This document shows positions 17,701 through 56,410 of a stretch of DNA of 64,000 bases, in pieces. The translations under genes were made by a program, and so were the position numbers. The notes beneath the pieces are model-generated. The model had not been told where the DNA came from and made no database searches. It was given only the letters and a program-made list of their open reading frames with translations. The first letter of the stretch is position 1. Each line of letters begins with the position of its first letter. This DNA comes from Clostridia bacterium (GTDB lineage Bacteria > Bacillota > Clostridia > Oscillospirales > RGIG577). Location of the stretch: the NCBI GenBank assembly GCA_017513095.1, contig JAFWDJ010000011.1, positions 731 through 64,730 on the forward strand, written 5' to 3'.

Positions 17701-20700
17701 AGGCTTCCGCCAAATCCCAAAAGACCGAGTCCGGTACCTATATCGTCGGTCATGTCCTTTGCTATCTGCTTAGCCTTGTCGAAGTCCTCGTCAAGCTCCT
17801 TATTGTATTCATCATATTTATTCTGCGGATCGCCGCCGCCATCGCCGCCATCGCCGCCGTTGTCGCACGGACCTCCGCTGCCTCCGGGAGGAGCGGGCGT
17901 CGGCATCGGGGGCGCGGACGGAGTCGGGAGATCGTCGTAATCATGGGTAAGAAGCTCCCCGGCTTCCGCTACCTTTTTGGCTGCCTGTAATTCGTCGATA
18001 TGTTCCTTGCCCCAGTTAATTATCGGACCGAACAAAGAACCAAGCCCGTCCGCGGACATCGTCTGCGCCTCTTCCCCTGCGTCTATAAGGGGCAGAGACA
18101 TTACGCCGAGGCCGCTTATTCTGGACGTATACGTCAACTCATCCGCGTTGATATCGACGTCAACTCTTATTTTAGCGGGCGTCCCGGACAAAAGTACGGT
18201 CGCAGCTTCATCTGTGTTAAGTGCAGGGTTTTGGTCCTTCCACTCGTAGTATATCTGATACTGCGCGCCGTCGGCCGTTTCAACGGCAGGCAGATACCAG
18301 CGGTTGTCGGGGCCGAAAAGGTCTTTCATTGCGGCCTCGAACTCTGCTTCGCCGTAATCGTAAAGCCCGTTTGCAACAAGCGATACGTACTTATCCCAGT
18401 CGGCTATCGCCTGATCCTGAATCTCCTGCGATTCGAAGGGCTTAAGCACAACTCCCCTGTCCGCGCTGTACGTATGTGCGTAGGGTGAGGGGTCTTCGTC
18501 CAAATCTATTTCCGCCACGGGGGCCGAAAGATCGGTCTCTTCCTCCCATTCTATCCAGAAGGCGCTTACGGGATGTATCGCGTCTCCCAGCTTTCCTTCT
18601 CCTTTAAAAGTATCCCCGTAACGAACAAGCTTTAACGTATCAAGCTCGCTTTCCGTATCGGCCTTTAAATATACCGCTTTAACTCTATCGGGATTATTGA
18701 ATGACACTGATGCCCATAAGTTTTGAAACGGTGATATCGTTAAATAGGAATGATCGAAAAGCGAATATCCGCATACATTTGCCGATTTAAGCGTGGGCGA
18801 GCCGTCATATACTACGGAAAAATACGCCTCTGCCGTTTCAAGCGGCTCGCTTTCACCCTCTCTTGAAACGCTTACCCTTGCTTTTCCTTCGTGTATCTTA
18901 TTTTCGGGGAATAAAGTTACGGTATACTTTCCCACAGGGCCGTAAAGCGCTATTGTTTTCTGCGTTCCGTCAACAACGCTTCCGTCGGGTCTTATCTCCT
19001 CGACGGTAAGTATATAATCATCGCCGGAGCCGCCGTACTTTGAAAGGTCAAACTCGGTAAATACAGAAATGCCTTGGCTTGCCGCATCCGTCTTTCTTAC
19101 CTTTGGATTATATATATCGGCTGAAAGCACGCTGTGATATGCAGCCGAAGAAGCTAACGGAACGGTAAATTCGCGGCCGTCAAAAGTAAGCTTTCGGAAA
19201 AACTGCGATACGGCGCCGTTTTCAAGCGCGTCGGCGGAGATATCATAGCTCAGATGCAGTACGTTAAGGTCAACGCCGTTGTCATTTATATAAACGGTAT
19301 TATCCTTTACCTCATAGGATACAGGCGCATTTCCCCATCCGGGCACTCTTGCAAGCGAAACGTTCTTTGCTCCGTCCGGCAGTATTACCATAGCCGACTG
19401 GTCTGAAACCTCACTGCTTCGCGAATATTGTATGGTGACTCGCGTTTTAACGCGGAAGGTATCCGCGGTCAAATACGATACCTCCGGGCCTGAGGAGAAT
19501 CCGTTCTCCGATTTATTTATGCGGTTCATAACGGGATCGTTTTCTATCAACAGTGTACCCGGATCGCTGCTTTGGGGCGTAACTTTTACGTATTCGCGCG
19601 AACTAAACAACCAGTACCGGGGATCTTCTCCGGCGTCTGTGTTCCATGTACCGACCACGAGGTAAGACACTCCGGGTATAAGATATACCTTTGTCTCGGA
19701 CAGCGTAGTCACCTCGTCGAATACTTTTTCGCCGGTCGACAGCGCATATACGATAATTCTTCGCGGCGTAAGATAATAATCGTCCGTCAAGGTGTTTATC
19801 TTTACCGTATACTCCGCGGCCGTCATTTTATCGACCGTTACGTTAATTTCATCGGGTACGCCCGCGGAACCCTTTGCAAGCGTAAACGTGCCCGTTCCCG
19901 AAAGACTGTAATCTTCGCCTATGCCGGATACGCTCAGCGTAACGGGAGTGCCCTTCGGAAGCTGAAGCGCGTTGAATAATACGCTTCCCTTCCCCGTCGG
20001 TGTATTCAGGGAGGCCGTGCTGTTGCCTATTCGGTAACAAAGCGATGAGGCGTCCGCGCTGCTCTGCCCGATGGGAATAAGGTTCCCGTCTTCCTCTATA
20101 AGCACGTTAACTTTAAGCTCAAGCGAACCCCTGAACGTGCGGTCAGCCTGTATCGTAACGCTCTGCGCGTCGAATGCTGCACTTGTATTCGCGTTTACAT
20201 AATACTCGCCGTCAACGCCCGTAGACGCGTCGTAGTCAATACTTGCGTAGAACGGCGAATGATTCACGCTCGTCCACGATACGGCAGCTTTGCCGTTTTC
20301 GTCGGTCGTTGCCTCTGCCATGGTATGGGACGACTTCAAATAGACAAAGCGGGCGTTAGGCGCAGGCTCTCCCAACTCGTTTTCGATATTTACCAAAATG
20401 GTGCGCGTCTCCTGACTCACTGTGTCAAGTACCGCCGTTTCAAGACGCAGAGCTTTACCGGTTGCGCCAAAGCTTAAAGTGCGCGGCTCCGCGCGAAGTG
20501 TGCCGTACTCGGTCTTGGCGTAGAACGCTTCCGTAGTTACTTTGACGTCTCCGTCCGTGCGCAGGGGAATTATTTCGGTATCCGTTTCATACCAGATGAC
20601 CTGTCCGCTTTCATTCGTAACGCCGCCGTGTCTTGAGTCGGTCGAAACCCTTACCCCCTCAATCGGGGTTCCCTGCTTATCGACAATCCTTAAGGCGAAC

Positions 20701-23700
20701 AGATACTTTTCGGCGGAGACGTTAACGGACGCGTTCGAGTACGATACCGTTATGTCCGTCCATCTGTAAAGCCTCAGTCCGTTTCCGTCTGTCAGAACGA
20801 GGGCGTAATCATCGCCCGCGGGCGCCGTGAACGTACACGTTCCCGTTTTGGCGGAAATTTCGCTTTGAGCGCTGAATCCGTTCCCCGTCAAGGTAAGACT
20901 CATACCGGAAACGTTTGTAAGCTCTGCGAAGTCGTAATTTACACTAAAGTCGACGGCGCGGTCGATGCGGTCGTTTAACTCTGCGGAAAGCTTCTCGCCC
21001 GAAGCGTCGGCCTCGAAGTATATCTTCGTTACGGCCGCGGCCTCGTCGGGGAGCGTAAAGGCCGCCGTCCACAATACGCCGCTTCCCTGCGCATCGCACG
21101 TAAGCTCGGTCGTACTGCCGTCGTTTAATTCAAGCGTAAGCTTCGCCGCCGCGCTCTGTATGCTTCCCGATACGTGCGCGTTCACGCTTATATCGGCGCC
21201 TTTCATACTGCCGAGCCTGTTCTTATCGTATGCGGCGGCAAGGCGGTTGACGCTCGGTTCGTTCGTAAGCGTGACCGATACGGCTTCGCTCTCCTGCGAG
21301 CGGTTGCCCGCCGCGTCAATAGCGCTCACCGTATACGTGCACGTCGTGCCGGGCTCTATGCCCAGGTGCGTATACATGCGCGTGCAGATGCGGGCAAGCT
21401 CCGTACCGTTGCACGTAAGAATATATGCGCTTACGGCCGTGTCATCCGTGCTTCTGCCCCACCTTAAGGAAACGCTGCCGTTCGTTTGAAGCTCTGCGGT
21501 AAGTCCTCCGGGTACGGTGGGAGGCGTCGTGTCGGACGCGGCGTCGATATTCGTGCCCGCGGTCGCTGCGGCGCTTACGGCGCCGTCGGCGTCGACGGAG
21601 TATATCGAATAATTATAGAAGCGTCCTCCGCTTAGCTGCGCATCGGTATACGTCGTGCCCTTTATGTTGTCGGCAATTATCTCGCCGTCGCGCGCGAGGC
21701 GGTAGTGGTCGCAGTCCTCAGACGCGGACGCCGTCCACGTAAGAACCGCCTTGCCCGAGGCGGGCACCGCCTTAAAATCGGTCGGCGGCAGAAGGATCGG
21801 CGACGCCGTCGATTCGCCCGTTACGGTAAAGAATACGCTTTCACTCTTAAACGGATTCGTTTGTCGGCCAAGCGTCTTTATCTCGGCCTTTGCGGTATAC
21901 GTTCCCGCCGCAAGGCCGGTAAACTCGGCCACTTCTTCCGTTATATATTTCTCGCTCGAGGCCACGGGCGTGTTCGTGGAGTCATAAACGGTTATCTTCA
22001 CTGTGGGCGTCTCTGCGTCATCGGCCGACTCAAGCGACGCCTCTGCCTCTTCAAGCTCGCCGTCCGGATCGTTCAAGTATGCAAAGTACACGGCCACGTT
22101 TTCGGCAGAGTCCTTTATTCCCGCGGCGATCCTTACGGTATCGCCGACCGCATACTGACTTTTTTCTACGTATATGCCCGCCGAAAGCTCCGTGGTTCCA
22201 ACGTATTTGCTTGTGCCGACGGTCGATTCGGGAGCTGCAAAGAAGTAGTATTCCGCATACTCGCCGTATGCCTCGTAATCGCGGAATCCTATATAAAGCT
22301 CTTCCTTTTCGCGGCAGTTCTGATATATCACGCGGTCAAACCCCGACCAGCCGAGTGTGTATTCAAGCGGTTCGTCGGGCGTCTCGTCAAACGCGAACCA
22401 GTACGCGGCGTCGGCGTACAGAGAATCCTCCTCCGGAGTCGAAAGCGTGAGTCCCGGGTTCTGTTCGTTAAACGCGATCTCAATCGTGACCGTCGCGCCC
22501 TCGGGCGTATTCGTAAGGTCGGCCGTCGCGCGTCCCATAAGGAGTGCGCCGTTGTCAACGCCGAATACCGCGACGTCGTATTTGCCGCCTACGGGGAGAT
22601 CGGCATAATACGAGCTGGTATTTGCGTCCGCGGATTCGTCCGCCGCGTCGGAGGCGCTGCTCGGGATAAAATACTCATCCGAATTCGCATATTCATACAC
22701 GAAATTGCGTATTTCGGGGTCGCCGTTCTCATCCTCAAGGTAAGCGTACACGCCGCCTCCGTACAGCTCGCCCATGTCGTAGCTGCCCTTATCGTTTTCG
22801 GTGATTAAAACGACCTTAACGCGTGCGGAAGGACGGCTTTCCTGCGGATTCATCGTATATTCAAGCGTGAAGCTGTCATTTCCGAGCCATCCGAGCGCGG
22901 ACTGGTTAAGCTCTAAAACGATGCGGTTTGGGCCCACGGGCGCGCTCGCATGGTTTTGCGTGAGAACGAACTCGGCAACGCCCTCCCCGTCGGGCTCGTA
23001 CGCGCCGCCCCTGCTGTAGCCGCGCATATTCCAAGTACCGCTTGCGGAGTCGTAATCCTCGTTATAGATACTGAAGCCGCCGTACGTCTCGGACGCGGTG
23101 CTGTTAAAGTCCTTCGTGCCGCTGTAATAGTATCCGTAATCGGTCACCGGGTTTCCTATGCTGTCGGTGAGCTTTAAGGAGAGCGTAAGGTCGCTCTGTC
23201 CGATTTTCGGGGACGCGGGCGTAAGAGTAAGATTTTCGGCCTTAAGCGGGCCCGCGCCGATTGAGAGCGACTTTGCGCCCGTAATCGTCTGCTTTCCCAA
23301 AGACACGCCGATATATCTGTCTCGCGGATTCACGAGGTATCCCGTTATCTCGTATTCACCCGGCGCGACGCTCACGCTTCCGCCCGCTGCGGGAAGCTCA
23401 AATACGGCGCCGTCGAGCGAGAGTAAAAGCCGGCTCGGCTGATACGTGCCCGAAGGCATAAGCGTTACCGTATTCGCGGACGCGAGATCTGCGTCAAGAT
23501 TCCATACGATATCGTCGTCGACCGTTTTCTTCAAAATATAGTCTTCGCCGCTCGCGCAAAGCGAAATCTCGGAGTCGCACGAAAGCGAGAACGAAGCGCT
23601 TGCGCTCTCGTCGAGCGTAACGAGCTCAAAGCTGCCCCCCGCGGTCATGGCGGTTATATTCGCGCCTTCGAACGCGTCGCTGCCCGTTACGGTCACGTTT

Positions 23701-25514
23701 ATGCTGTCGCTTAAATTTACGTTAAGATTCTTTGATATGCCGAAGCTCTGCAGCGTGATGCTCTTTATCGCGTAAAAGCCCTCGCCGGATACGAAGAGCG
23801 TGGCCGCTGCTTCGGGATTGCTTAAATCGAGGATGCATCTGCCCTTTGAATCGGCACGGGCACCCGTTTCCACGCCGTATTCGTCGACGATAAGAGCCGT
23901 TGCGCCCGTCGCGGGCTTATTGTCGGGGCCGAATACCGTAACGGTCACGGTATTTTCGGAGCGTATCACGTAAAACCTTCCGCATTCCTCAGAATTGGAC
24001 GCGGGCTGCTCCACAGATTGACCCATCGCGTCGGTAAATCGGCATTTCCATGAATAGAACGACTCGTCAAGCGCGCTCGTATCGAAGGACGCCTCTATAT
24101 ATTCGCGCTCGGTCCCGTTAAGCGTGACCTCGCCCAAAAGAATGTCGCCTGACGAGCTGTATACGTCGCTTGCGTATACGCTCATCGTCGCGGCTTTCGC
24201 TCCCGGGTTGTATAGTAAGCCGCCAAGCGTTATTTCATCCTTAAAAGCCTCCGTGCTTACGCCCGGATCGGTCGTAAAGAGTACGCCGCCGCTTCCCATG
24301 AGCGAAATGCCGTTCGCGTAGTCCGTGAGGAGATTGGACGCATTCTGCGAACGGTCGAACGCGGTCATAACGGGCGCCATGTCGGACGAGTTCGCCGCAG
24401 CTGAGCTCTTCAGCGCCGCCGTCATGCCCGAAAGCAGCGCGGCGGAGGCCGACGTACCCGTAAACGTCTCATACGAGCTGCCCGCGCCCGTGGTCAAAAG
24501 ATCGGTGCCGGGAAGCCAGAAGAAGCTTACGCCCAGGTCCGAGGAGCGTACAGGCTTATTCGACCACGACTCGTACGAATAATAGGTCGAGTTCTTTTTC
24601 GCGTTCTTATGCGAGCCCGCGCAAATAACGCCGCGAAGCGCCGCGGGGTAATAATTGTAGCCTGCCGTGGAGATCGAATTTCCGTCGTTTCCGGCGGCAG
24701 CTATAACGGTGCAGCCCTTCGAAATCGCGTAGTCGACCGACTCCTGCATCGCCGCGGGAGCCGATTTCATGCTCTGACCGAGCGAGAGGTTTATTATATC
24801 CGCGCCGTTATCGGCAGCATAGCGGATACCCGCGGCGATATTGGCCACGGTACCCTTGTCATTCTCGGAAAGAACTCTTACGGGCATCACAGATACGGGC
24901 ATTTTGCCCGCAATTCCCGCAATACCGATATTGTTGTCGGCGTTGGCGGCGATAAGTCCCGCAACCTTGGTGCCGTGCGACTCCAACGATACGTCGCTGT
25001 TTTCGTCGGCCGCTATCGCCTTATCCGAAACTATATCCCAGCCGTCAATAACGCGTCCCGAAAGGTCGGGATGCGCGCCGTTTATGCCGCTGTCAACGAC
25101 AGCAACTGTAACGGGCACGGCGCTTGCGAGATAATTCTCGTCAAGAAGCTGCCATGCGCTCTCGGCATTTATAATCGGGATGTACTGCTGATCGGAGTAC
25201 CTCTCGTCGTTATAGTAGCCGCAGGCTTCCATTACGGCATTCTCCGTAACGGATATTACATCGGGACGGCCCGCATAATCGGACGCGTCCCCGCCTGAAA
25301 CGAGAACTGTCCCCTCCCACAGCAGTCTGCCGCCGTTTACGTCTGCGAACGCCTGCGCGGCCGCCGAATCGGTAAACGTGACAATCCATTCGCCTGACGC
25401 GCCGCGGTCATCGGCAGACGCCGCCATTACGCCCATCGGAAGCATGGTCGCAATCATGGCGAGCGCAAGCAGAAGCCCCAGCGCCTTTTTGAACGATCTT
25501 TTCATTTCCGCCAC
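14781..25514 (-). CDS. Giant (3577 aa) secreted S8 subtilisin-like protease with multiple Ig-like/FN3/Big_2 domains and C-terminal SLH anchor
   Basis: - Single uninterrupted ORF with a GGAG RBS.
- Signal peptide: KKALGLLLALAMIATMLPMGVMAASA.
- S8 catalytic triad: VAVVDSGI (D, ~25095), HGTKVAG (H, ~24975), GTSASAA (S, ~24452).
- Two FN3 domains at ~21255-21795.
- Big_2 domain at ~16465-16710.
- Chitobiase-C-like Ig domain at ~15615-15850.
- Listeria-Bacteroides (Flg_new) repeat at ~15365-15570.
- Three SLH repeats at ~14784-15340. Confidence 0.9.
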   Translation of the reverse strand: MAEMKRSFKKALGLLLALAMIATMLPMGVMAASADDRGASGEWIVTFTDSAAAQAFADVNGGRLLWEGTVLVSGGDASDYAGRPDVISVTENAVMEACGYYNDERYSDQQYIPIINAESAWQLLDENYLASAVPVTVAVVDSGINGAHPDLSGRVIDGWDIVSDKAIAADENSDVSLESHGTKVAGLIAANADNNIGIAGIAGKMPVSVMPVRVLSENDKGTVANIAAGIRYAADNGADIINLSLGQSMKSAPAAMQESVDYAISKGCTVIAAAGNDGNSISTAGYNYYPAALRGVICAGSHKNAKKNSTYYSYESWSNKPVRSSDLGVSFFWLPGTDLLTTGAGSSYETFTGTSASAALLSGMTAALKSSAAANSSDMAPVMTAFDRSQNASNLLTDYANGISLMGSGGVLFTTDPGVSTEAFKDEITLGGLLYNPGAKAATMSVYASDVYSSSGDILLGEVTLNGTEREYIEASFDTSALDESFYSWKCRFTDAMGQSVEQPASNSEECGRFYVIRSENTVTVTVFGPDNKPATGATALIVDEYGVETGARADSKGRCILDLSNPEAAATLFVSGEGFYAIKSITLQSFGISKNLNVNLSDSINVTVTGSDAFEGANITAMTAGGSFELVTLDESASASFSLSCDSEISLCASGEDYILKKTVDDDIVWNLDADLASANTVTLMPSGTYQPSRLLLSLDGAVFELPAAGGSVSVAPGEYEITGYLVNPRDRYIGVSLGKQTITGAKSLSIGAGPLKAENLTLTPASPKIGQSDLTLSLKLTDSIGNPVTDYGYYYSGTKDFNSTASETYGGFSIYNEDYDSASGTWNMRGYSRGGAYEPDGEGVAEFVLTQNHASAPVGPNRIVLELNQSALGWLGNDSFTLEYTMNPQESRPSARVKVVLITENDKGSYDMGELYGGGVYAYLEDENGDPEIRNFVYEYANSDEYFIPSSASDAADESADANTSSYYADLPVGGKYDVAVFGVDNGALLMGRATADLTNTPEGATVTIEIAFNEQNPGLTLSTPEEDSLYADAAYWFAFDETPDEPLEYTLGWSGFDRVIYQNCREKEELYIGFRDYEAYGEYAEYYFFAAPESTVGTSKYVGTTELSAGIYVEKSQYAVGDTVRIAAGIKDSAENVAVYFAYLNDPDGELEEAEASLESADDAETPTVKITVYDSTNTPVASSEKYITEEVAEFTGLAAGTYTAKAEIKTLGRQTNPFKSESVFFTVTGESTASPILLPPTDFKAVPASGKAVLTWTASASEDCDHYRLARDGEIIADNIKGTTYTDAQLSGGRFYNYSIYSVDADGAVSAAATAGTNIDAASDTTPPTVPGGLTAELQTNGSVSLRWGRSTDDTAVSAYILTCNGTELARICTRMYTHLGIEPGTTCTYTVSAIDAAGNRSQESEAVSVTLTNEPSVNRLAAAYDKNRLGSMKGADISVNAHVSGSIQSAAAKLTLELNDGSTTELTCDAQGSGVLWTAAFTLPDEAAAVTKIYFEADASGEKLSAELNDRIDRAVDFSVNYDFAELTNVSGMSLTLTGNGFSAQSEISAKTGTCTFTAPAGDDYALVLTDGNGLRLYRWTDITVSYSNASVNVSAEKYLFALRIVDKQGTPIEGVRVSTDSRHGGVTNESGQVIWYETDTEIIPLRTDGDVKVTTEAFYAKTEYGTLRAEPRTLSFGATGKALRLETAVLDTVSQETRTILVNIENELGEPAPNARFVYLKSSHTMAEATTDENGKAAVSWTSVNHSPFYASIDYDASTGVDGEYYVNANTSAAFDAQSVTIQADRTFRGSLELKVNVLIEEDGNLIPIGQSSADASSLCYRIGNSTASLNTPTGKGSVLFNALQLPKGTPVTLSVSGIGEDYSLSGTGTFTLAKGSAGVPDEINVTVDKMTAAEYTVKINTLTDDYYLTPRRIIVYALSTGEKVFDEVTTLSETKVYLIPGVSYLVVGTWNTDAGEDPRYWLFSSREYVKVTPQSSDPGTLLIENDPVMNRINKSENGFSSGPEVSYLTADTFRVKTRVTIQYSRSSEVSDQSAMVILPDGAKNVSLARVPGWGNAPVSYEVKDNTVYINDNGVDLNVLHLSYDISADALENGAVSQFFRKLTFDGREFTVPLASSAAYHSVLSADIYNPKVRKTDAASQGISVFTEFDLSKYGGSGDDYILTVEEIRPDGSVVDGTQKTIALYGPVGKYTVTLFPENKIHEGKARVSVSREGESEPLETAEAYFSVVYDGSPTLKSANVCGYSLFDHSYLTISPFQNLWASVSFNNPDRVKAVYLKADTESELDTLKLVRYGDTFKGEGKLGDAIHPVSAFWIEWEEETDLSAPVAEIDLDEDPSPYAHTYSADRGVVLKPFESQEIQDQAIADWDKYVSLVANGLYDYGEAEFEAAMKDLFGPDNRWYLPAVETADGAQYQIYYEWKDQNPALNTDEAATVLLSGTPAKIRVDVDINADELTYTSRISGLGVMSLPLIDAGEEAQTMSADGLGSLFGPIINWGKEHIDELQAAKKVAEAGELLTHDYDDLPTPSAPPMPTPAPPGGSGGPCDNGGDGGDGGGDPQNKYDEYNKELDEDFDKAKQIAKDMTDDIGTGLGLLGFGGSLLGDATLSQKDNVIDSLYDAQKKHLQDINNALKDLDPDGGGGGGGGSNPDCDPPNGKQPPAGGANSTAPRSNNSLIDPSGTVYEVNTANTLSGVKASLYYYNGSVPAGFDESNAEWQSEYWQTLPAWSEEGAWTLWNSTDYGQPENPLSTDADGHYGWDVLAGAWKVVFEKAGYLPAESMVLPVPPPHLDVDINMTSTGTPAVTEVRADKNGEVIYITFDKYMTLDSLKGDGSVRIFFGDTELSGEITAADATVTAEGAKQTPTEGGAQSGVTVGREFIYAIDQTAFDPLPVGASFRVTIDGEVSCYNGMALGAKYDSGLLTVPEKNPTPPVTAIAFADYENENMTVGDSADLSAKIVLTGGDGSEAITWSTNDAEVASVDANGKVTAVSEGTATIFAECGGLSAARGVVVVRGPVTADPANNKVEFCRSDNIVVDKRCWMWSVADNYDLEGKVEGDTKFIPVSWQITEDGVVMAGAELAESETTVVTPYYPKTDGATAVGSITYQEYRYNGVSWKPVGSPVTVTNTRVVAQVTGLALKTPPAKQTVGEPLKLSDMVLNISLSDGTVSEAPYEKIEKYGITYSIEPGTVLTENDTTLTLTHTTTGITLDVSLMEEPASAAAPVISPAGGTFQNSTTVTIASATEGAKIYYTVDGSAPDENSTPYAAPFAISDTTTVKAVAFADGLKPSTVTTAVFTKQSGSGGGGGGSSGKSSFRITFDTDGGIAMDSVVVSGGKVDLSKYVPVRDGYEFDGWYSDKELTKPITAPITISSNTTVYAKWTEKTEPSGGLPFVDVSEGQWFYGDVKYVYENGLMVGTDETHFSPDLKTTRGMIVTVLYRLAGSPEVTGECPFDDVGSLSYCRDAVTWAAENGVVTGYNEKTFGPDDTITREQMATIIYRYVKLSGGGFEGAWSMRLDFDDAGDISDWAFEAVSWCCMNGIITGMDENTLNPQGSATRAQTAAILHRFIELMNEA

Positions 25515-33320: not shown

Positions 33321-36833
<3,513 letters not shown>

Positions 36834-36889: not shown

Positions 36890-39800
36890 TCAATCGTCGA
36901 AATTGAGCTCACTTTGCCGCGAGGACTCTTTATCGCCGGCTTCCTCGGAAATAAAGCCTATCGAGTCAAAGTCGAGCTCCTGCACGTCGTCGCCCTCGTC
37001 GTCGTAGCCGCTGTCGGAGGTGTACTCGTCGGACGGGAACAGATCGTCGCCCACGTCTCTCATATCTCCGAGCTCAGCTACCGATACGTCGGCGTCGTCA
37101 TCGTCGTCAAGCGATTCCTTAAGCTCTATCTCCTGCATATCCTTTGCAAGCACTCTTACGTCGAGTCCCAAAGACTGCATTTCCTTTATAAGCACCTTGA
37201 ACGATTCGGGAACGCCCGGCTTGGGCACGTTTTGACCCTTTACGATGGACTCGTAGGTCTTTACGCGTCCCACGACGTCGTCGGATTTTACGGTAAGTAT
37301 CTCCTGAAGCGTGTAAGCCGCGCCGTATGCCTCGAGCGCCCAAACCTCCATCTCGCCGAAGCGCTGTCCGCCGAACTGCGCCTTGCCGCCGAGCGGCTGC
37401 TGGGTTACGAGCGAATACGGGCCCGTGGAGCGCGCGTGAATCTTGTCGTCAACAAGGTGGGCAAGCTTTAAGAAGTACATATAGCCTACCGTTACGGGGT
37501 TGTCGAACGGCTCGCCCGTGCGTCCGTCGTAAAGTATGCTCTTGCCGTCGGGAGAAAGTCCCGATTCGCGAAGAAGCTGCTCTATGTCCTTCTCGTTCGC
37601 GCCGTCGAATACGGGCGTTGCGACCTTATAGCCAAGCTTATTGGCCGCGTAGCCCAAGTGGACCTCGAGCACCTGTCCTATATTCATACGCGAAGGCACG
37701 CCGAGCGGATTCAGTACTATGTCAAGCGGCGTACCGTCGGGCAGAAACGGCATATCCTCCTGCGGAAGAATGCGCGAGATAACGCCCTTGTTGCCGTGGC
37801 GTCCTGCCATCTTGTCGCCTACGGATATCTTTCTCTTCTGCGCGATATATACGCGGACTACTTTGTTTACGCCGGGCGTAAGCTCGTCGCCGTTTTCGCG
37901 GGTGAAGACCTTTACGTCCACGACAATGCCCGACTCTCCGTGAGGCACGCGAAGTGAAGTGTCTCGCACTTCTCTTGCCTTCTCGCCGAATATCGCGCGA
38001 AGCAGGCGTTCCTCGGCCGTAAGCTCCGTTTCGCCCTTGGGCGTTACCTTAACGACGAGTATGTCGCCCGCGCGAACGGTCGCGCCGACTCTTATGATGC
38101 CGTTCTCGTCGAGGTCCTTAAGAGCGTCCTCGCCCACATTCGGGATATCTCTCGTTATCTCCTCGGGGCCGAGCTTCGTATCTCTTGCTTCAATTTCGTA
38201 TTCCTCAATGTGTATAGAAGTATATACGTCGTCGCGCACAAGCTTTTCGTTGATTAAAACGGCGTCCTCGTAGTTGTAGCCTTCCCACGTCATAAAGCCG
38301 ATGAGCACGTTTTTGCCAAGTGCCATCTCGCCGTTTGCGGTGGAGGGGCCGTCGGCTATTACCTCGCCCTTCTTAACGCGCTGGCCGCGGTTTACGATGG
38401 GGCGCTGATTTATGCAGGTGCCCTGGTTCGAGCGCTTGAACTTGAGGAGCTTGTGCACCTCGCGCTCGCCGGAATCGAAGCGAACGACTATCTCGTCGCC
38501 GCTTACCTTCTCGATTACGCCGTCGTCGCCCGCAAGGCGCGTAACGCACGAGTCAACGGCCACCTTGTATTCCATGCCGGTGCCCACAATGGGAGCCTGG
38601 GTCTTTAAAAGCGGTACCGCCTGACGCTGCATGTTGGAGCCCATGAGCGCGCGGTTCGCGTCGTCGTTCTCAAGGAAGGGAATCATAGCCGTTGCGATGG
38701 ATACGAGCATCTGGGGCGATACGTCCATGTAATCGACCTGAGCGCGGTTTATAAGAAGTATCTCGTCGCGGTAGCGCGCGTTTACCATCTGGCGCTTGAA
38801 GCGTCCCTGCTCGTCGAGCGGCTCGTTGCCCTGAGCCACGACGTAGTTGTCCTCAACGTCGGCCGTCATGTATTCTATTTCGTCGGTAACTATGCCCGTC
38901 TCCTTGTCAACCTTGCGGTAGGGCGCCTCTATAAAGCCGAACTCGTTTACGCGTGCGTAGGACGCAAGGTACGAGATAAGGCCGATGTTCGGGCCTTCGG
39001 GAGTCTCTATGGGGCACATTCTGCCGTAATGCGAGTGGTGAACGTCGCGCACCTCAAAGCTTGCGCGCTCACGCGAAAGGCCGCCGGGGCCGAGTGCCGA
39101 AAGTCTTCTCTTATGCGTAAGCTCTGCAAGCGGATTCGTCTGGTCCATGAACTGCGACAGCGGCGAGGAGCCGAAAAATTCCTTTATCGCAGCGACCACG
39201 GGACGGATGTTCACAAGCGCCTGCGGCATTATGGTGTCTATCTCCTGAGTCTGCATACGGTCGCGTATCGTGCGCTCCATGCGCGCAAAGCCGATGCGGA
39301 ACTGGTTCTGCAGAAGCTCGCCTACCGAACGAAGGCGGCGGTTGCCGAGATGGTCGATGTCGTCGTCGCTGCCCACGCCGTGTGCAAGCGCGTTCAAATA
39401 GTTTATCGACGACATGATGTCATCTATGATTATATGCTTCGGGATAAGCTCGTCGATTTTTTCCTTTATCGCTTCTTCTATCTCTTCGTCGGTCTCGTAT
39501 TTTTCGATTATTTCTCTTAAAACACTGAAGCGCACCTTCTCGGTTATCTCAAGATCTTCTGCGATTTTGGGAGAAACGAAATCGGAAAGCGTTACCATGC
39601 CGTTCGAGAACACCTTTACGTCCTCGCCCTCAACGTCCAAAAGGACGCCCGATACGCCTACGCGCTCGATGAGCATTGCCTTGTCCGCCGAAAGCTTTTC
39701 GCCCGCCTCGGCGATTATCTCGCCGCTTAAGGGATCAACTACGGGCTCTTTTACGACCTTGCCCGCAAGTCTTCTGCCGAGCGCGAGCTTTTTGTTGTAC

Positions 39801-40618
39801 TTATAGCGGCCGACCTTGGAAAGGTCATATCTTCTTGCGTCGAAGAAGAGGCTGTTGACGAGCGAACGCGCGCCGTCGGTCGTGGGCGGCTCGCCGGGAC
39901 GAAGCTTCTTATAAACTTCCAGAAGGCCCTCGTCCTCGTTTGCAGCGGTGTCCTTTTCAAGCGTAGCGAGTATGCGCGCGTCGTTTCCGAATATATCGAG
40001 TATCTCTTTATTCGTTCCGAAGCCGAACGCGCGTATGAGCACGGTGATGGGGAGCTTTCTGTTTTTGTCTATGCGCACGAAGAACAGATCGTTCGAATCC
40101 GTCTCGTATTCGAGCCATGCGCCGCGGTTCGGGATAACGGTGGACGCGTAGAGATACTTGCCCGTCTTATCCTGTTCCTTCGTATAATATATGCCGGGCG
40201 AACGCACGAGCTGAGAAACGACTACACGCTCCGCGCCATTGTAAATGAACGTGCCGGAGGGCGTCATCTTCGGAAAGTCGCCCATGAATATTTCCTGCTC
40301 TTTTATCTCACCCGTTTCTTTGTTGGCAAGTCTTAACTTTACCTTTAAGGGCACGCAATACGTAGTATCGCGCTCCTTGCACTCTTCGACGTTGTACTTT
40401 GGCGTATCGTCGAGAGAATAGTCCACAAAATCCAAAACAAGGTTACCGGAATAGTCCACAACCGGAGATACATCGCGAAATACTTCACGAAGCCCCTCCT
40501 CCAAAAACCATTCATACGAGTTTCTCTGAATCTCAATAAGATTAGGCATTTTTAATACCTCGGAGATCTTAGAAAAGCTCATTCTCGTGTTATTTCCGTA
40601 CTGCACAGGTTTAACCAC
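36890..40618 (-). CDS. rpoB: DNA-directed RNA polymerase subunit beta
   Basis: The ORF-track frame is 36890..40711. I favour the GTG at 40618, which gives (M)[14 protein letters not shown], the usual Firmicutes RpoB N-terminus, with GGAG upstream. The rifampicin-cluster region [17 protein letters not shown] is present. Confidence 0.95.
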
Positions 40619-40835
40619 GATCGCATCACTCCATTCCCGGTTAATTAGTTGATGTCCGTCTGATATGCATAAAATATCCGGCCGCAAAACCGGCTTTCGA
40701 CAGGAAAGCAATTCTGACTATATATTTTCAACAATTTTTTGAAAAAAACTGTTGCAAAATATAAAACCGTCCGTTATAATACGGGTAAGGGCAAATATGC
40801 ACCTCTCATCATATTTTCCGCATATGCAGTTAAAT

Positions 40836-50872: not shown

Positions 50873-50910
50873 ATATCGGCAAAGCGAAAACGCTTTGCCG
50901 ATATTTTTTT
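50873..50910. terminator. Bidirectional terminator between the VWA gene and the recombinase gene
   Basis: ATATCGGCAAAGCG-AAAA-CGCTTTGCCGATAT followed by a T-run. Confidence 0.8.
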
Positions 50911-51514
50911 ATATTGCGTCGTCTCTTGTCCATTTAAGGAACGTCTTATGCGACACGCCGAGCTTGACAGCCGCCTTTCTTGCCGACATTTTCCCGTTCT
51001 GCCACAGTATGAGCATATCGTCGTAGCGCGCCGGACGCCTTTTCGGCCTTCTGCCGAACTTTACGCCGTTCGCATGGGCCGCCGCAATCCCCTCCCTCTG
51101 CCGCTTACGAATAAATTCGCGCTCCGTCTGCGCAACATAGCTTAGAAGCTCCAACACGATGTCCGCGATGAGCGTGCCCGTAAGGTCGCGGTCCTTGTGC
51201 GTGTCTAAAAGCGGCATATCGAGCACGACTATCGCCGCGCTTTTTTCCTTCGTGATAATGCGCCATTGTTCGAGTATTTCAAGGTAGTTTCTCCCCAGAC
51301 GGTCAATGCTTTTTATCACAAGCGTATCGTTCGGGCGAAGCTTGTTTATAACGCGCTTATAGCCCTTTCTGTCAAAATCCTTCCCCGACTGCCTGTCCGA
51401 AAAAATATTCCCCTCCTCTACGCCGTATTCGCGCAGCGCGGCAAGCTGCCTGTCCTCGTTCTGATCGCGCGACGATACGCGCATATAGCCGTAAATGCAG
51501 GTCTTCCTTTTCAT
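50909..51514 (-). CDS. Small serine recombinase (resolvase/invertase family)
   Basis: The start was moved to the ATG at 51514 (MKRKTCIYGYMRVSSRDQNEDRQ), with an AGGAGG RBS. The catalytic Ser motif is YxRVSS. The C-terminal HTH is MSARKAAVKLGVSHKTFLKW. Length is 201 aa. Confidence 0.85.
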   Translation of the reverse strand: MKRKTCIYGYMRVSSRDQNEDRQLAALREYGVEEGNIFSDRQSGKDFDRKGYKRVINKLRPNDTLVIKSIDRLGRNYLEILEQWRIITKEKSAAIVVLDMPLLDTHKDRDLTGTLIADIVLELLSYVAQTEREFIRKRQREGIAAAHANGVKFGRRPKRRPARYDDMLILWQNGKMSARKAAVKLGVSHKTFLKWTRDDAI

Positions 51515-51674
51515 AATAAATCCTCCTTTGATAAAGCAGTATTTAGAGACCATTTTATACCGCAAGGCCGACAAATTTCCGCGCCGAACTTCTTGCATTA
51601 TTCACATATTTTTACTTTAAAACGGCGCGTTTTGTGCGGTTTTCACCGAAAAGAAAAAATCGGCGCAAAATGTA

Positions 51675-53722: not shown

Positions 53723-53730
53723 AATATGAA

Positions 53731-53773
53731 AAAAAGAGGCGGCGTCCGGGGAAATCCCGGCGCCGCCTTTTTT
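53731..53773. terminator. Bidirectional terminator after amt
   Basis: The stem is GAGGCGGCG(T)CCGGG-GAAAT-CCCGGCGCCGCCT, with an A-run on the left and a T-run on the right. Confidence 0.8.
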
Positions 53774-53819
53774 GAGCCGTGCCTTTATCCTTGCGGGGGC
53801 GGATTATACTTTAAGCCGC

Positions 53820-53966
53820 TTACGCCCGCGAAGCCGTAATAATCATTATCTGCGAATGCGGGTATTGCGCTTTAAGTATCTTTTCCGCGTCGTACTGCGA
53901 ATTCGCGCTCACGATCTGCTCCGTAACGCGGCCGTTGACCGTGAATTTTATTCTGAAGCTCTGCAC
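53820..53966 (-). CDS. 48-aa conserved small protein, paralogue 1 (not in ORF track; GTG start)
   Basis: GGAGGTGAAAAC precedes the GTG start. The translation is (M)QSFRIKFTVNGRVTEQIVSANSQYDAEKILKAQYPHSQIMIITASRA. It is the same length as the ORF at 55253-55399 and 26/48 residues are identical. 15 of the identical residues use different synonymous codons. Confidence 0.7.
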   Translation of the reverse strand: MQSFRIKFTVNGRVTEQIVSANSQYDAEKILKAQYPHSQIMIITASRA

Positions 53967-54114
53967 GTTTTCACCTCCCCGCGGCTTTATACACCGTCCG
54001 AACGGCCCGCCGTACTCCCCGGACCGTTCGCGCCGAAATCTGCGTGTAGTGTCTTACGCTTATATTATATCACGTTTTAAGCAAAATTGCCGTATATGTT
54101 AAAATTTTTTTAGA

Positions 54115-55155
54115 CTATATCTCGTCAGCGAAGCCGAAATAATCAGCAAGCGCGATAATCTCGTCCGTCCTGCCGAATTTCTTTGCGGCGTACTTATAAT
54201 ACTTCATATCATACGGATTGAGCCTTATGACGTTTACGAAAGCGCTTTTTATCTTATCCTCGGGGAATCCCGCCGAGGTGAGATTTTTAAATACGTTTTC
54301 GGCGCTTTTTATCTCCGCCTCCCCGGGCAGAACGATATCGACGCCGTTTTCTATAAGCAGCTCGACAAGCGTACCGTGAACGAAAAAGTAATCCGAAAAT
54401 ACGTGAAGCATAAGCTCGGCGGCGTCGACAGCTGCGAACATCGCCTCTTTCTGTTCCTTCGAGACGCCTATCCTCTCCTTATGACCGCTCACCATGCCGT
54501 CGGCTATCTGCCCGTAGAGATTTCCGAAGGCGCCGCCTGCATTCCTCGTTTTATATCGGTCTGCGGCCATCGTGAGAATTGCCGTGGACAAATTGTTTTT
54601 GTTGCCTTCCGCGGCTTTGTTTCCCGCTGAAACAACCGTCTCGTAGTCGGATATCGCGCTGCGGAAGCGCGCCTTATGCTTGGCAGTTAAGGTCTCCGCG
54701 GAAACAGAAAACACGTTTTCCGAAAACAGCGTATCCATCGCGTATTTTATGAGCGGATACAGGTATTCGTCGTAAATACCCGGGAAACCTTCGATAAAGC
54801 TTACGTAGTCGCGCACCGTCGCGCCGTATTTTTCCGCCGCTTTTTGGGTGCACTCGCGGGCGAGCAGATAAAACTGCTTTCGATAGGCGTTAAAGACGTC
54901 CATTTCGGCGGGCACCTCGATATTTTCTCCGAACAGCTCGAGCGTCACCGCTTTTCCCGTCGGTCTTTCGGGCTTTTTTATAAGCGCGGCGTTATCCTTC
55001 GTTTCTTTCGGTATGCTTGTCCCAAGGTCAAATTCCTGCTTTAAAACGTATCCGTTTGCGTCGGATGCGTCCTGACGTGACGCCTTTCCCGCTTTATTTA
55101 CGTATTCGCTTCCGGCCTTCTTCGCGCCGTCAATATATTTTCCAAACAATCCCAT
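54115..55155 (-). CDS. 346-aa hypothetical protein (no recognisable family)
   Basis: GGAGGTG RBS. The N-terminus is Lys/Ala/Gly-rich, and the remainder looks helical. Confidence 0.7.
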   Translation of the reverse strand: MGLFGKYIDGAKKAGSEYVNKAGKASRQDASDANGYVLKQEFDLGTSIPKETKDNAALIKKPERPTGKAVTLELFGENIEVPAEMDVFNAYRKQFYLLARECTQKAAEKYGATVRDYVSFIEGFPGIYDEYLYPLIKYAMDTLFSENVFSVSAETLTAKHKARFRSAISDYETVVSAGNKAAEGNKNNLSTAILTMAADRYKTRNAGGAFGNLYGQIADGMVSGHKERIGVSKEQKEAMFAAVDAAELMLHVFSDYFFVHGTLVELLIENGVDIVLPGEAEIKSAENVFKNLTSAGFPEDKIKSAFVNVIRLNPYDMKYYKYAAKKFGRTDEIIALADYFGFADEI

Positions 55156-55252
55156 ACTTTATCACCTCCGTGAAAATGAGGCCCCCGATTTATAAAAGAA
55201 CAATTATAAACCGGAGGTGATTCTTTGTTTCGTGCCGCTTGCGTGAAAGTTT

Positions 55253-55399
55253 TTAAATCTTCACAGTTGCTATAAAAGAGATTTTCGAATTCGGATACTG
55301 CGCCTTAATCAGCTTCTCGGCGTCAAACTTTGACTGAGCTCTCACTATCTGCTCCGTTTGTCGTCCGTCCACTCTGAACTTAATCTTAAATGTATACAT
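55253..55399 (-). CDS. 48-aa conserved small protein, paralogue 2
   Basis: This is the internal ATG of the track ORF 55253..55531, preceded by GGAGGTGAAAGA. The translation is MYTFKIKFRVDGRQTEQIVRAQSKFDAEKLIKAQYPNSKISFIATVKI. Confidence 0.7.
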   Translation of the reverse strand: MYTFKIKFRVDGRQTEQIVRAQSKFDAEKLIKAQYPNSKISFIATVKI

Positions 55400-55457
55400 T
55401 CTTTCACCTCCTTTGGCGAAGCGGCCCCTTGCCGTATGCCGCCTCTTTTTTCTTGTT

Positions 55458-55673
55458 TCATCTTGAGCAAAACGGGCGAAGTACGCACCCCGGGCATGCG
55501 AGCGTAAAACCGTTTTCATCCTTTTTCCCATACTGACAGCCCGCGCTGCCCATAAGGTCCTTTTTTTCGTCGCGTCTGTCCATCTTCTCGGTAATCCTGT
55601 TTGCTATCGCGGCGCCTACTGCGATGCGAAGAATATCGCCGAAAAAGCCCGAGCTTCTGTTATAGTCCGACAT
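55458..55673 (-). CDS. 71-aa hypothetical protein with C-terminal four-Cys knuckle
   Basis: The GGGAGG RBS overlaps the stop of the upstream XRE gene. The N-terminus is amphipathic (GFFGDILRIAVGAAIANRI). The C-terminus is CQYGKKDENGFTLACPGCVLRPFC, i.e. CX13CX2CX5C. Confidence 0.6.
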   Translation of the reverse strand: MSDYNRSSGFFGDILRIAVGAAIANRITEKMDRRDEKKDLMGSAGCQYGKKDENGFTLACPGCVLRPFCSR

Positions 55674-55679
55674 AATATA

Positions 55680-55910
55680 TCAACCTCCCGCCGCCGCATG
55701 ACTTTGTCTCTCGCCTCGAACGTCGATAAAAAGCTCGGGGCTTACGTTTAAGGCAAGACATATTTCTCTTAATTCGTCCGCATAAAGCGTGCGTCTGCCG
55801 CTTAGCATCGCATTCAGATCCGTCTGCGATATCCCCGACTTTTCGGCAACGGCAACACGCTTTAACCCGTTTTCATCAATATACGTGCTTACCCTCTCGT
55901 ACACTTTCAT
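55680..55910 (-). CDS. XRE-family HTH transcriptional regulator (76 aa)
   Basis: HTH_3 pattern: LKRVAVAEKSGISQTDLNAMLSGRRTL. Confidence 0.8.
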   Translation of the reverse strand: MKVYERVSTYIDENGLKRVAVAEKSGISQTDLNAMLSGRRTLYADELREICLALNVSPELFIDVRGERQSHAAAGG

Positions 55911-55926
55911 TTCATCACCCGTTATA

Positions 55927-55970
55927 ACAGTATTGCTGTATTTAATTAGATAGTATCACAGTTTTTCTGT
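55927..55970. promoter_or_regulatory. Two ACAG-N5-CTGT palindromic operators in the divergent XRE promoter region
   Basis: ACAGTATTGCTGT is at 55927-55939 and ACAGTTTTTCTGT is at 55958-55970. Their centres are 31 bp apart. The second fills the -35/-10 spacer of the minus-strand promoter. Confidence 0.55.
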
Positions 55971-55978
55971 ATTATCAA
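55950..55978 (-). promoter_or_regulatory. Promoter of the minus-strand cassette operon
   Basis: The minus strand reads TTGATA-17 nt-TACTAT with an extended TG. Confidence 0.5.
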
Positions 55979-56010
55979 GACTTTTTTACACGATTTCAAA
56001 AGTATTTTTC

Positions 56011-56038
56011 TTTACTTTCCAGATTTTAAAGGTATAAT
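56011..56038 (+). promoter_or_regulatory. Promoter of the plus-strand XRE gene
   Basis: TTTACT-16 nt-TATAAT. Confidence 0.5.
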
Positions 56039-56061
56039 ATACAAAGAGAGGTGATTTCGGC

Positions 56062-56379
56062 TTGCGAAAATATGAGATTGGCGACAGGATAAGAAAATAT
56101 CGTGAGGCTCGCGGCTTGACCCAAAGGCAGCTTGCCGAGATGCTGGGTGTGACAGGCAGCAGAATCTCGAATTGGGAGCAGGGAACGAACCGACCTGACG
56201 CGGATATGCTGTCCGATTTATGCAGGGCTCTTAAAGTTTCCCCGAGCGTCATGCTCGACGTCAGGCTCACCGAAGACGACTTTACCGAGCGGGAGCGAAA
56301 GATTATCTACGCGTACCGCAGCAGCCCTAAGGTGCAGCATGCCATCGACATTCTATTGGGCCTTGACGACAATATATAA
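56062..56379 (+). CDS. XRE-family HTH transcriptional regulator (105 aa)
   Basis: TTG start after AGAGGTGA. The HTH_3 is IRKYREARGLTQRQLAEMLGVTGSRISNWEQG. Confidence 0.8.
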   Translation: MRKYEIGDRIRKYREARGLTQRQLAEMLGVTGSRISNWEQGTNRPDADMLSDLCRALKVSPSVMLDVRLTEDDFTERERKIIYAYRSSPKVQHAIDILLGLDDNI

Positions 56380-56382
56380 TAG

Positions 56383-56410
56383 AAAAACGGCGGATTATTC
56401 CGCCGTTTTT
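56383..56410. terminator. Bidirectional terminator between the XRE gene and cobC
   Basis: AAAAACGGCGG-ATTATT-CCGCCGTTTTT. The cobC stop codon lies in the loop. Confidence 0.75.

Follow-up and report, generated by a model that had tools for sequence, protein, structure and literature searches.

Two duplicated 48-residue proteins in a Clostridia regulatory cassette belong to an unannotated small-protein family with a predicted Gp2-like fold

What do two very small, related open reading frames (ORFs) encode when they stand on either side of a larger gene that matches no protein model, and are they genes at all? Proteins under 50 residues are often missed by gene callers and almost never annotated, and the question is raised here by a stretch of 64,000 nucleotides (nt) from Clostridia bacterium (contig JAFWDJ010000011.1, positions 731 to 64,730; the whole stretch is called the window below). 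In it, an initial annotation made from the letters alone had pointed out two 48-codon paralogues, here P1 and P2, on both sides of a 346-codon ORF, here p346. We find that the two are genuine protein genes of an unannotated small-protein family, which is probably a distant variant of the known Gp2 type, named after the small phage T7 protein that binds RNA polymerase (RNAP).

The coordinates of both frames were borne out by our analysis (Table 1), as was the leader said to precede them: GGAGGTGAAA lies 7 nt upstream of each start codon, and these are its only two occurrences in the window (chance expectation 0.04). P2 is nested in a longer listed ORF of 92 residues, and we take the ATG at 55399 to be its true start, as indicated by the ribosome-binding site (RBS) and by every homologue. 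P1 and P2 are identical at 27 of 48 residues when the start codon of P1 is read as Met, and at the 26 of 48 first reported when the start is left out. Most of these identical residues use different codons, as had been claimed, although the earlier count of 15 became 16 of 26 in our recount (17 of 27 with the start). Nucleotide identity at codon positions 1, 2 and 3 was 31, 39 and 19 of 48, respectively; none of 200,000 shuffles of P2 reached 27 identities, the maximum being 14, and tblastn of P1 against P2 gave an expectation value (E) of ~1e-15. Between P1 and P2 the proportion of synonymous differences (pS) was 0.79 and that of nonsynonymous differences (pN) 0.27. P2 compared with its syntenic orthologue gave a ratio of nonsynonymous to synonymous rates (dN/dS) of ~0.16, with synonymous sites saturated. 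P1 and P2 are genuine, selected protein genes, and purifying selection is clear. A family hidden Markov model (HMM) found no third copy in the window.

A full HMMER scan of 1.84 billion representatives with a profile of P1 and P2 (E of 0.001 or better) matched 76 clusters, nearly all of them stand-alone proteins of 47-54 residues, mainly from uncultured Clostridia, with the consensus MxxYkvxFxVnGkrTEqIVxAxsxxDAkKLIeAQYxgxKIxfxxxxx. The existence of this family, together with the dN/dS value against the orthologue, upholds the view of the initial annotation that these are real proteins under purifying selection. Its members are strongly basic: the isoelectric point (pI) is above 8 in 97% of them, with a mean pI of 9.5 and a mean net charge of +3.6 (P2, +6; P1, +3). 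Neither P1 nor P2 matched a curated model in Pfam, NCBIfam or PADLOC, and no Pfam model reached threshold in a scan of 62 relatives. A word-indexed protein search with P2 returned P2 itself as the sole match, and the same search with the family alignment returned 20 unnamed proteins, while tblastn of P1, P2 and the family consensus against cultured phages and plasmids gave chance-level matches only. Resemblances to PepSY (weak matches in 4 of the 62 relatives) and to the protein G B1 domain (E 0.048) were set aside as pattern-level only. The best family match of P1 is P2 (56%), so that P1 is most simply a diverged duplicate of P2.

Some proteins carry the 48-residue module in tandem. Three copies follow a TM2 membrane domain in P0010, two follow a signal peptide in P0019, two occur in P0061, and two are split by a transmembrane segment in P0044.

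An AlphaFold2 model of P2, built from a 70-sequence alignment, had a predicted local distance difference test score (pLDDT) of 93.6 and consisted of beta1 (residues 2-10), beta2 (13-21), a helix (24-34) and beta3 (40-47), with a pLDDT above 90 across beta3. According to this model, P1 and P2 are each a single compact beta1-beta2-alpha-beta3 domain, in which the C-terminal tail is the integral beta3 strand. This modifies the description of a conserved body with an unrelated tail. The last 8 residues of P1 and P2 do share just 1 identity, with a BLOSUM score no better than that of shuffled tails, but the body and the tail are predicted to form one folded domain, and each tail resembles that of the orthologue (3 of 8 identical, BLOSUM 14-15), which indicates that the two tails are homologous and have diverged in different directions. 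Across the 70 relatives, positions 40, 42 and 43 are hydrophobic and conserved, and position 47 is usually basic.

Comparison of the P2 model with solved structures, using Foldseek, placed two RNAP-binding proteins at the top of the list. The first was epsilon (RpoY/YkzG, Pfam PF07288; PDB 4njc, E 0.055, template modelling (TM) score 0.63-0.68), and the second was T7 Gp2 in its complex with Escherichia coli RNAP (4lk0_M, TM 0.72, root-mean-square deviation 2.3 over 48 columns). Weaker matches were to phi29 p6 (DNA-binding), to p56, an inhibitor of uracil-DNA glycosylase (UDG), and to RNA-binding ribosomal proteins. In a viral model library, dozens of uncharacterised phage proteins of ~50 residues matched at TM 0.8-0.94.

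For Gp2 (Pfam PF16857, RNA_pol_inhib; PDB 2wnm and 4lk0), the likeness extended to sequence profiles. When an alignment of eight Gp2 sequences from T7-like phages was compared with the family profile by hhalign, the probability was 84.8% (P 6.6e-6) over 47 ungapped columns, pairing P2 2-48 with Gp2 14-60. In a column-shuffle control, 0 of 298 valid shuffles scored as high; two that seemed to do so had aligned just 2-12 columns and were artefacts. Structural invariants are common to both sides (Gp2/family: F16/F4, E28/E16, A33/A21, A39/A27 and Y47/Y35), comprising an aromatic residue in beta1, a Glu and an Ala in beta2, a helix Ala and Q-Y at the helix end. Epsilon served as a same-fold negative control, and hhalign detected no sequence relation between it and the family (probability 0.3%). 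The Pfam RNA_pol_inhib model left P1 and P2 unmatched and matched 2 of the 62 relatives weakly, below threshold (E 0.027 or weaker); the Pfam epsilon model matched neither P1, P2 nor any of the 62, and gave a weak match (E 0.013) to one family fusion protein only. The profile comparison points to remote homology, with the family as a probable distant, charge-inverted relative of Gp2 and not a Gp2 family member in the functional sense.

How might such a protein act? The interface of Gp2 on the beta-prime jaw of RNAP is formed by beta3 and alpha1, with beta3 extending the sheet of the target (PMC3778932), and epsilon is a small stand-alone Firmicutes protein that also binds RNAP (PMC7749165). 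By analogy, each small protein would act as a free-standing, clip-on binding module of the Gp2 type, docking on a larger partner through edge strand beta3 and the helix, in the manner of Gp2 on the beta-prime jaw; the partner would most plausibly be RNAP, another transcription or DNA-handling protein, or the adjacent p346. P1 would be a duplicate of P2 whose divergence has fallen mainly on beta3, leaving the two copies with different targets or affinities. P1 and P2 do differ most in beta3, matching the binding-edge region of Gp2, and because beta3 is the target-binding edge in Gp2 (PMC3778932), this divergence could mean different partners. We favour this model tentatively, giving it as a whole somewhat less than an even chance. 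As RNAP is what each of the two characterised proteins with this fold binds (PMC3778932, PMC7749165), it is the leading candidate target, with p346 and the Xre switch as alternatives, yet even if the clip-on model holds, we think it doubtful that RNAP is the target.

Several observations weigh against the clip-on model, above all in its RNAP form. R56 and R58 of Gp2 are invariant and bind the beta-prime jaw (PMC3778932), but they align with A44 and V46 in P2 and with A44 and S46 in P1, and the corresponding family columns hold S/N/T (Arg in 6 of 70) and T/K/R. Inhibition by Gp2 needs an acidic strip of E21, E34, D37, E38, E41, E44 and E53 (PMC3778932); the family is acidic at only one or two of these seven positions, with D26, the equivalent of E38, as the only consistently acidic one and with Lys at the equivalent of E41 in 50 of 70 members. 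The overall charge is likewise inverted, at about +3 to +6 (pI ~10) in the family against -5 (pI 4.6) in Gp2, whose sequence and that of epsilon were verified against the PDB for this comparison. Because the family is basic while Gp2 and epsilon are acidic, the Gp2 mechanism cannot apply unchanged. The secreted or membrane-tethered tandem forms do not sit easily with a ligand of RNAP confined to the cytoplasm, and searches of cultured phages, plasmids and IMG/VR turned up no family relatives. Finally, the beta-beta-alpha-beta fold is simple and recurs with other functions, among them those of the UDG inhibitor p56, phi29 p6 and ribosomal proteins.

A wider form of the same reading can be put forward. 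Charge-inverted Gp2 relatives would then be a widespread, unrecognised class in Clostridia mobile elements, docking on RNAP or another DNA- or RNA-handling machine by beta-sheet augmentation, and in this lineage a duplicated pair with differing beta3 edges, along with an Xre/Cro switch, a four-cysteine protein and p346, would have been domesticated as a chromosomal regulatory or protective module. Taken jointly, these propositions seem unlikely to us.

The setting of P1 and P2 bears on these readings and on their rivals. The cassette consists of a divergent Xre-type gene followed on the minus strand by a Cro-like gene, a gene for a four-cysteine protein (p71), P2, p346 and P1. It has a bidirectional terminator in common with a convergent amtB-glnK fusion gene (Table 1).

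Table 1. Features of the cassette, with positions numbered from the first letter of the window
Feature	Position	Strand	Details
Bidirectional intrinsic terminator	53730-53775		Both strands fold into a GC-rich stem followed by a U run
P1, 48-residue small protein, downstream paralogue	53820-53966	-	GTG start, 48 codons + stop; family HMM E 4e-25
RBS of P1, GGAGGTGAAA	53969-53978	-	7 nt upstream of GTG
TGATATAAT, candidate extended -10	54064-54072	-	In the 148-nt spacer upstream of P1; read from sequence
p346, 346 residues, mostly alpha-helical	54115-55155	-	Partner downstream of the small gene, conserved in three lineages
Stem-loop	55182-55217	-	In the 97-nt P2-p346 spacer; minimum free energy -31.7 kcal/mol, z -2.8
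P2, 48-residue small protein, upstream paralogue	55253-55399	-	ATG start, 48 codons + stop
RBS of P2, GGAGGTGAAA	55402-55411	-	7 nt upstream of ATG
p71, 71 residues	55458-55673	-	C-terminal C-x13-C-x2-C-x5-C; directly upstream of P2
Cro-like helix-turn-helix (HTH) protein, 76 residues	55680-55910	-	First operon gene; Pfam HTH_19/HTH_3
Control region between the divergent HTH genes	55911-56061		Consensus-match promoter-like sites: minus 55999-55971, plus 56011-56038
Xre/CI-like HTH repressor candidate, 105 residues	56062-56379	+	Divergent; Pfam HTH_3 1e-18

Two non-coding features may affect how the small genes are expressed. Upstream of P1, TGATATAAT reads as a perfect extended -10 and suggests that P1 may be transcribed apart from the operon; the consensus promoter scan did not call it, the -35 match being absent. 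Between P2 and p346, the 5' arm of the stem-loop opens with CCUCC and the hairpin is followed by CCUCAUUUUCA and the p346 RBS, an arrangement that may attenuate read-through, stabilise the transcript or act as an anti-Shine-Dalgarno element. A different hairpin occupies the same small gene-p346 spacer at an orthologous locus (L001). All Rfam matches in the cassette were below threshold, overlapped terminators and were discarded.

The larger proteins gave few leads. p346, p71 and their homologues matched no model in Pfam, NCBIfam, PADLOC or PHROG. For p346, AlphaFold2 had an alignment of just two sequences to work from and gave a model too poor to use (pLDDT 38), and a sequence-profile search of the PDB with p346 found designed helical repeats only. 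The window also contains, on the minus strand, the host RNAP genes for beta-prime (33321-36833) and beta (36890-40711), and a single ORF of 3577 residues (14781-25514).

Where did the cassette come from? In a related metagenome-assembled genome, the orthologous locus reads cobS, cobC, Xre, Cro-like, four-cysteine protein, 48-residue gene, 342-residue gene and amtB, and P2 is the orthologue of the single small-gene copy in such related genomes. A backbone of Xre, Cro-like and p346 homologue (27-31%) recurs in a Ruminococcus genome (L014), where it adjoins a primase and a serine recombinase, in an IMG/VR viral contig (L025), where it lies with a primase-helicase and two serine recombinases, and in a further metagenome contig (L024). 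Across L001, L014, L024 and L025, the equivalents are 62-78% identical to the window Xre protein (62-64% outside L001) and 57-67% identical to the Cro-like protein (57-66% outside L001). The GC content of the cassette (53800-56400) is 44-52% against 55-62% for the flanking amtB and cob genes, while its divergence from the L001 locus (52-78%) is similar to that of the flanking cob genes (61-67%). Because the backbone recurs in elements, the GC content differs and the divergence matches that of the cob genes, the cassette has the look of an ancient capture, a switch module from a mobile element that has since passed down vertically at its site between cobC and amtB.

A serine recombinase (Pfam Resolvase; 50909-51598, minus strand) lies beyond amtB as seen from the cassette, and a related genome has a resolvase in the same relative position. 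It was rejected as the recombinase of the same element, being just 22-25% identical to the L014 and L025 recombinases.

The downstream copy, P1, is known only from the lineage of the window, no counterpart having been found downstream of the p346 homologues in L001, L011, L012, L014 or L017. The flanking arrangement first described therefore stands here but does not generalise: elsewhere, at most the upstream copy is found beside p346 relatives.

That upstream copy is the basis of one rival to the clip-on model, in which the small protein would be a dedicated partner of p346, such as an antitoxin, immunity protein, chaperone or adaptor; P2 would neutralise or load p346, and P1 would either supply a further dose from its own transcript or be a variant whose specificity has changed. 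The initial annotation had likewise thought of partner-specific adaptor, antitoxin or immunity proteins. In 3 of 5 p346 lineages (the window/L001 group, L014 and L017), a p346 family gene comes straight after the small gene, at spacers of 11-97 nt, and the p346 proteins of these lineages are only 27-57% identical; by homologue, identity to the window p346 is 57% (P0003, L001), 31% (L014), 27% (L017, L024) and 30% (L025). The small-then-large order resembles that of type II toxin-antitoxin pairs, the intergenic hairpin could set the P2:p346 ratio, and an addictive or protective module would explain why the cassette has been kept at one chromosomal site since the lineages split. Against this, the p346 homologues of L024 and L025 do without the small gene, having unrelated genes of 271 and 284 residues in its slot, and p346 is adjacent in just 3 of ~15 small-family contexts, most family members having quite different neighbours. 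p346 itself matches no toxin, defence or enzyme model, and no DNA-binding domain of the antitoxin kind can be recognised in the small protein. The idea that tail type tracks the p346 partner also failed, since p346 accompanies the subfamily with the STGHEY tail in L014 and L017 but not in L033-L035. The loose linkage to p346 weakens the partner-specific reading, although the divergence of P1 and P2 at the strand by which Gp2 binds its target (PMC3778932) still speaks for it. On balance, a partnership dedicated to p346 appears improbable.

Two other kinds of neighbour recur. A protein of ~70 residues with the pattern C-x10-13-C-x2-C-x5-C is encoded directly upstream of the small gene in the window (55458-55673), L001 (2278-2511) and L033 (3773-3979). 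A scan of 2640 ORFs for the four-cysteine pattern found it only in the window, in orthologous loci and in the otherwise unrelated L033-L035, plus two spurious ORFs; this protein could be another partner that recurs beside the small one. In L007-L010, the small gene is followed by an unrelated 54-residue gene (L007 5188-5352) with a similar predicted pattern and a weak DpnD/PcfM match (E 0.055), and such paired small genes may be a recurring theme.

Several neighbours of the small gene that are not homologous to one another start with the motif MG[LF][FLI]xK (MGLFGKY, MGLFDKL, MGFLDKL, MGLFEKL and MGLINKV), as seen at the N-terminus of the window ORF 54115-55155 and at L014 4835, L007 4355, L031 818 and L033 3773. 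These starts may form a common N-terminal amphipathic helix.

The regulators that accompany the family suggest a further rival. A divergent Xre-type HTH gene lies within one or two genes in ~8 of 15 independent family contexts. In one, Xre is followed by a 209-residue gene, the small gene and a 54-residue gene; in another, by the small gene and a 152-residue gene; in Pedobacter, by the small gene and several more small genes, with a resolvase nearby; and in a fourth, by genes leading to the gene for DNA polymerase III alpha. Other contexts, of which there are several more, include WYL-regulated operons with UDG-like, Mrr-like or UvrD genes. One subfamily stands beside or behind WYL-domain regulators (L003 2828-5150, L026 1016-4150 and L033 4001-5849), in operons that hold UDG-like, DUF1810, Mrr-like nuclease, UvrD helicase or NADAR genes, a defence- or DNA-repair-type context.

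From such settings, the small protein could be read as a nucleic-acid- or repressor-binding regulator of the Xre/Cro switch, that is, a minimal Cro-like or antirepressor-like factor with operator DNA or the Xre protein as its target. Its strongly basic character would suit this role, as would the Xre linkage of 8 of ~15 contexts, the link of three further contexts to WYL-type regulators and DNA-repair or restriction genes, and the place of the small gene as the first gene divergent from Xre, the classical Cro position, in L015, L017 and L027. The weaker fold matches to DNA-binding phi29 p6 and RNA-binding ribosomal proteins point the same way. The small protein, however, lacks a known DNA-binding motif, the window and L014 already have a genuine Cro-like HTH gene upstream, and secreted and membrane-tethered tandem forms exist; moreover, the closest detectable relative, Gp2, is explicitly non-DNA-binding (PMC3778932). 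A role in the switch itself thus strikes us as unlikely too.

The last rival, raised in the initial annotation, that P1 and P2 are modified-peptide precursors with a conserved 40-residue leader and a variable 8-residue core, draws its sole support from the concentration of identity in residues 1-40 against 1 of 8 in the tail and is hardly credible, since the whole chain is predicted to be one compact domain with the tail as integral strand beta3, the conserved hydrophobic positions fall within that tail, the tails have no Cys-rich or Ser/Thr-rich cores, and neither the cassette nor related loci hold a radical-SAM, YcaO, lanthipeptide synthetase, peptidase or ABC exporter gene.

The clip-on model is the reading that we carry forward, and part of what has been gained does not depend on it. 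The family now has a confident predicted fold, a statistically supported distant link to a phage RNAP inhibitor, and a clear habitat, namely mobile elements of Clostridia from gut and rumen, where it lies on the Cro side of Xre-type switches. If binding to RNAP or another core machine is true, the Gp2 principle would no longer be confined to the T7-like phages of Proteobacteria but would reach Firmicutes elements, where its electrostatics would be different, and the duplicated P1 and P2 would be a natural experiment on how an edge strand sets target specificity. If it is not true, two ORFs have still been assigned to a family and the peptide-precursor idea has been removed.

Among known systems, type II toxin-antitoxin pairs are like the cassette in their small-then-large order, short spacers, nearby Xre-type regulator and stable chromosomal retention; they differ in that the p346 pairing is not obligatory, p346 is unlike known toxins and the small protein does not have an antitoxin DNA-binding fold. 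In size, the family resembles the DpnD/PcfM-like proteins (PF14207) and PHROG 685 and 16595, which are proteins of ~45-50 residues from plasmids, restriction cassettes and phages. P1 matched phrog_16595 (6e-4) and phrog_685 (1.5e-3) and P2 gave 0.036, while the best relatives reached 7e-6 and 1e-4 against PHROG 16595 and 685, matching just 3 and 2 of 62. The DpnD-PcfM model matched 4 of 62 relatives at E 0.042 or weaker, below the gathering threshold, and left P1 and P2 unmatched. Across both groups, no match came up to a curated threshold; nothing relevant was found in the literature on DpnD/PcfM, and since the functions of these groups are unknown, membership would add no mechanism. Epsilon, the closest solved structure, differs in being acidic (pI 4.8), in its length of ~69 residues and in its long beta1-beta2 loop. 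T7 Gp2 carries a 13-residue N-terminal extension that the family does not have and belongs to T7-like phages of Proteobacteria, whereas the family sits on Clostridia chromosomes. Gp2 and the family are nevertheless alike in their beta1-beta2-alpha-beta3 topology and similar size, and mobile elements carry the genes of both in early or regulatory operons.

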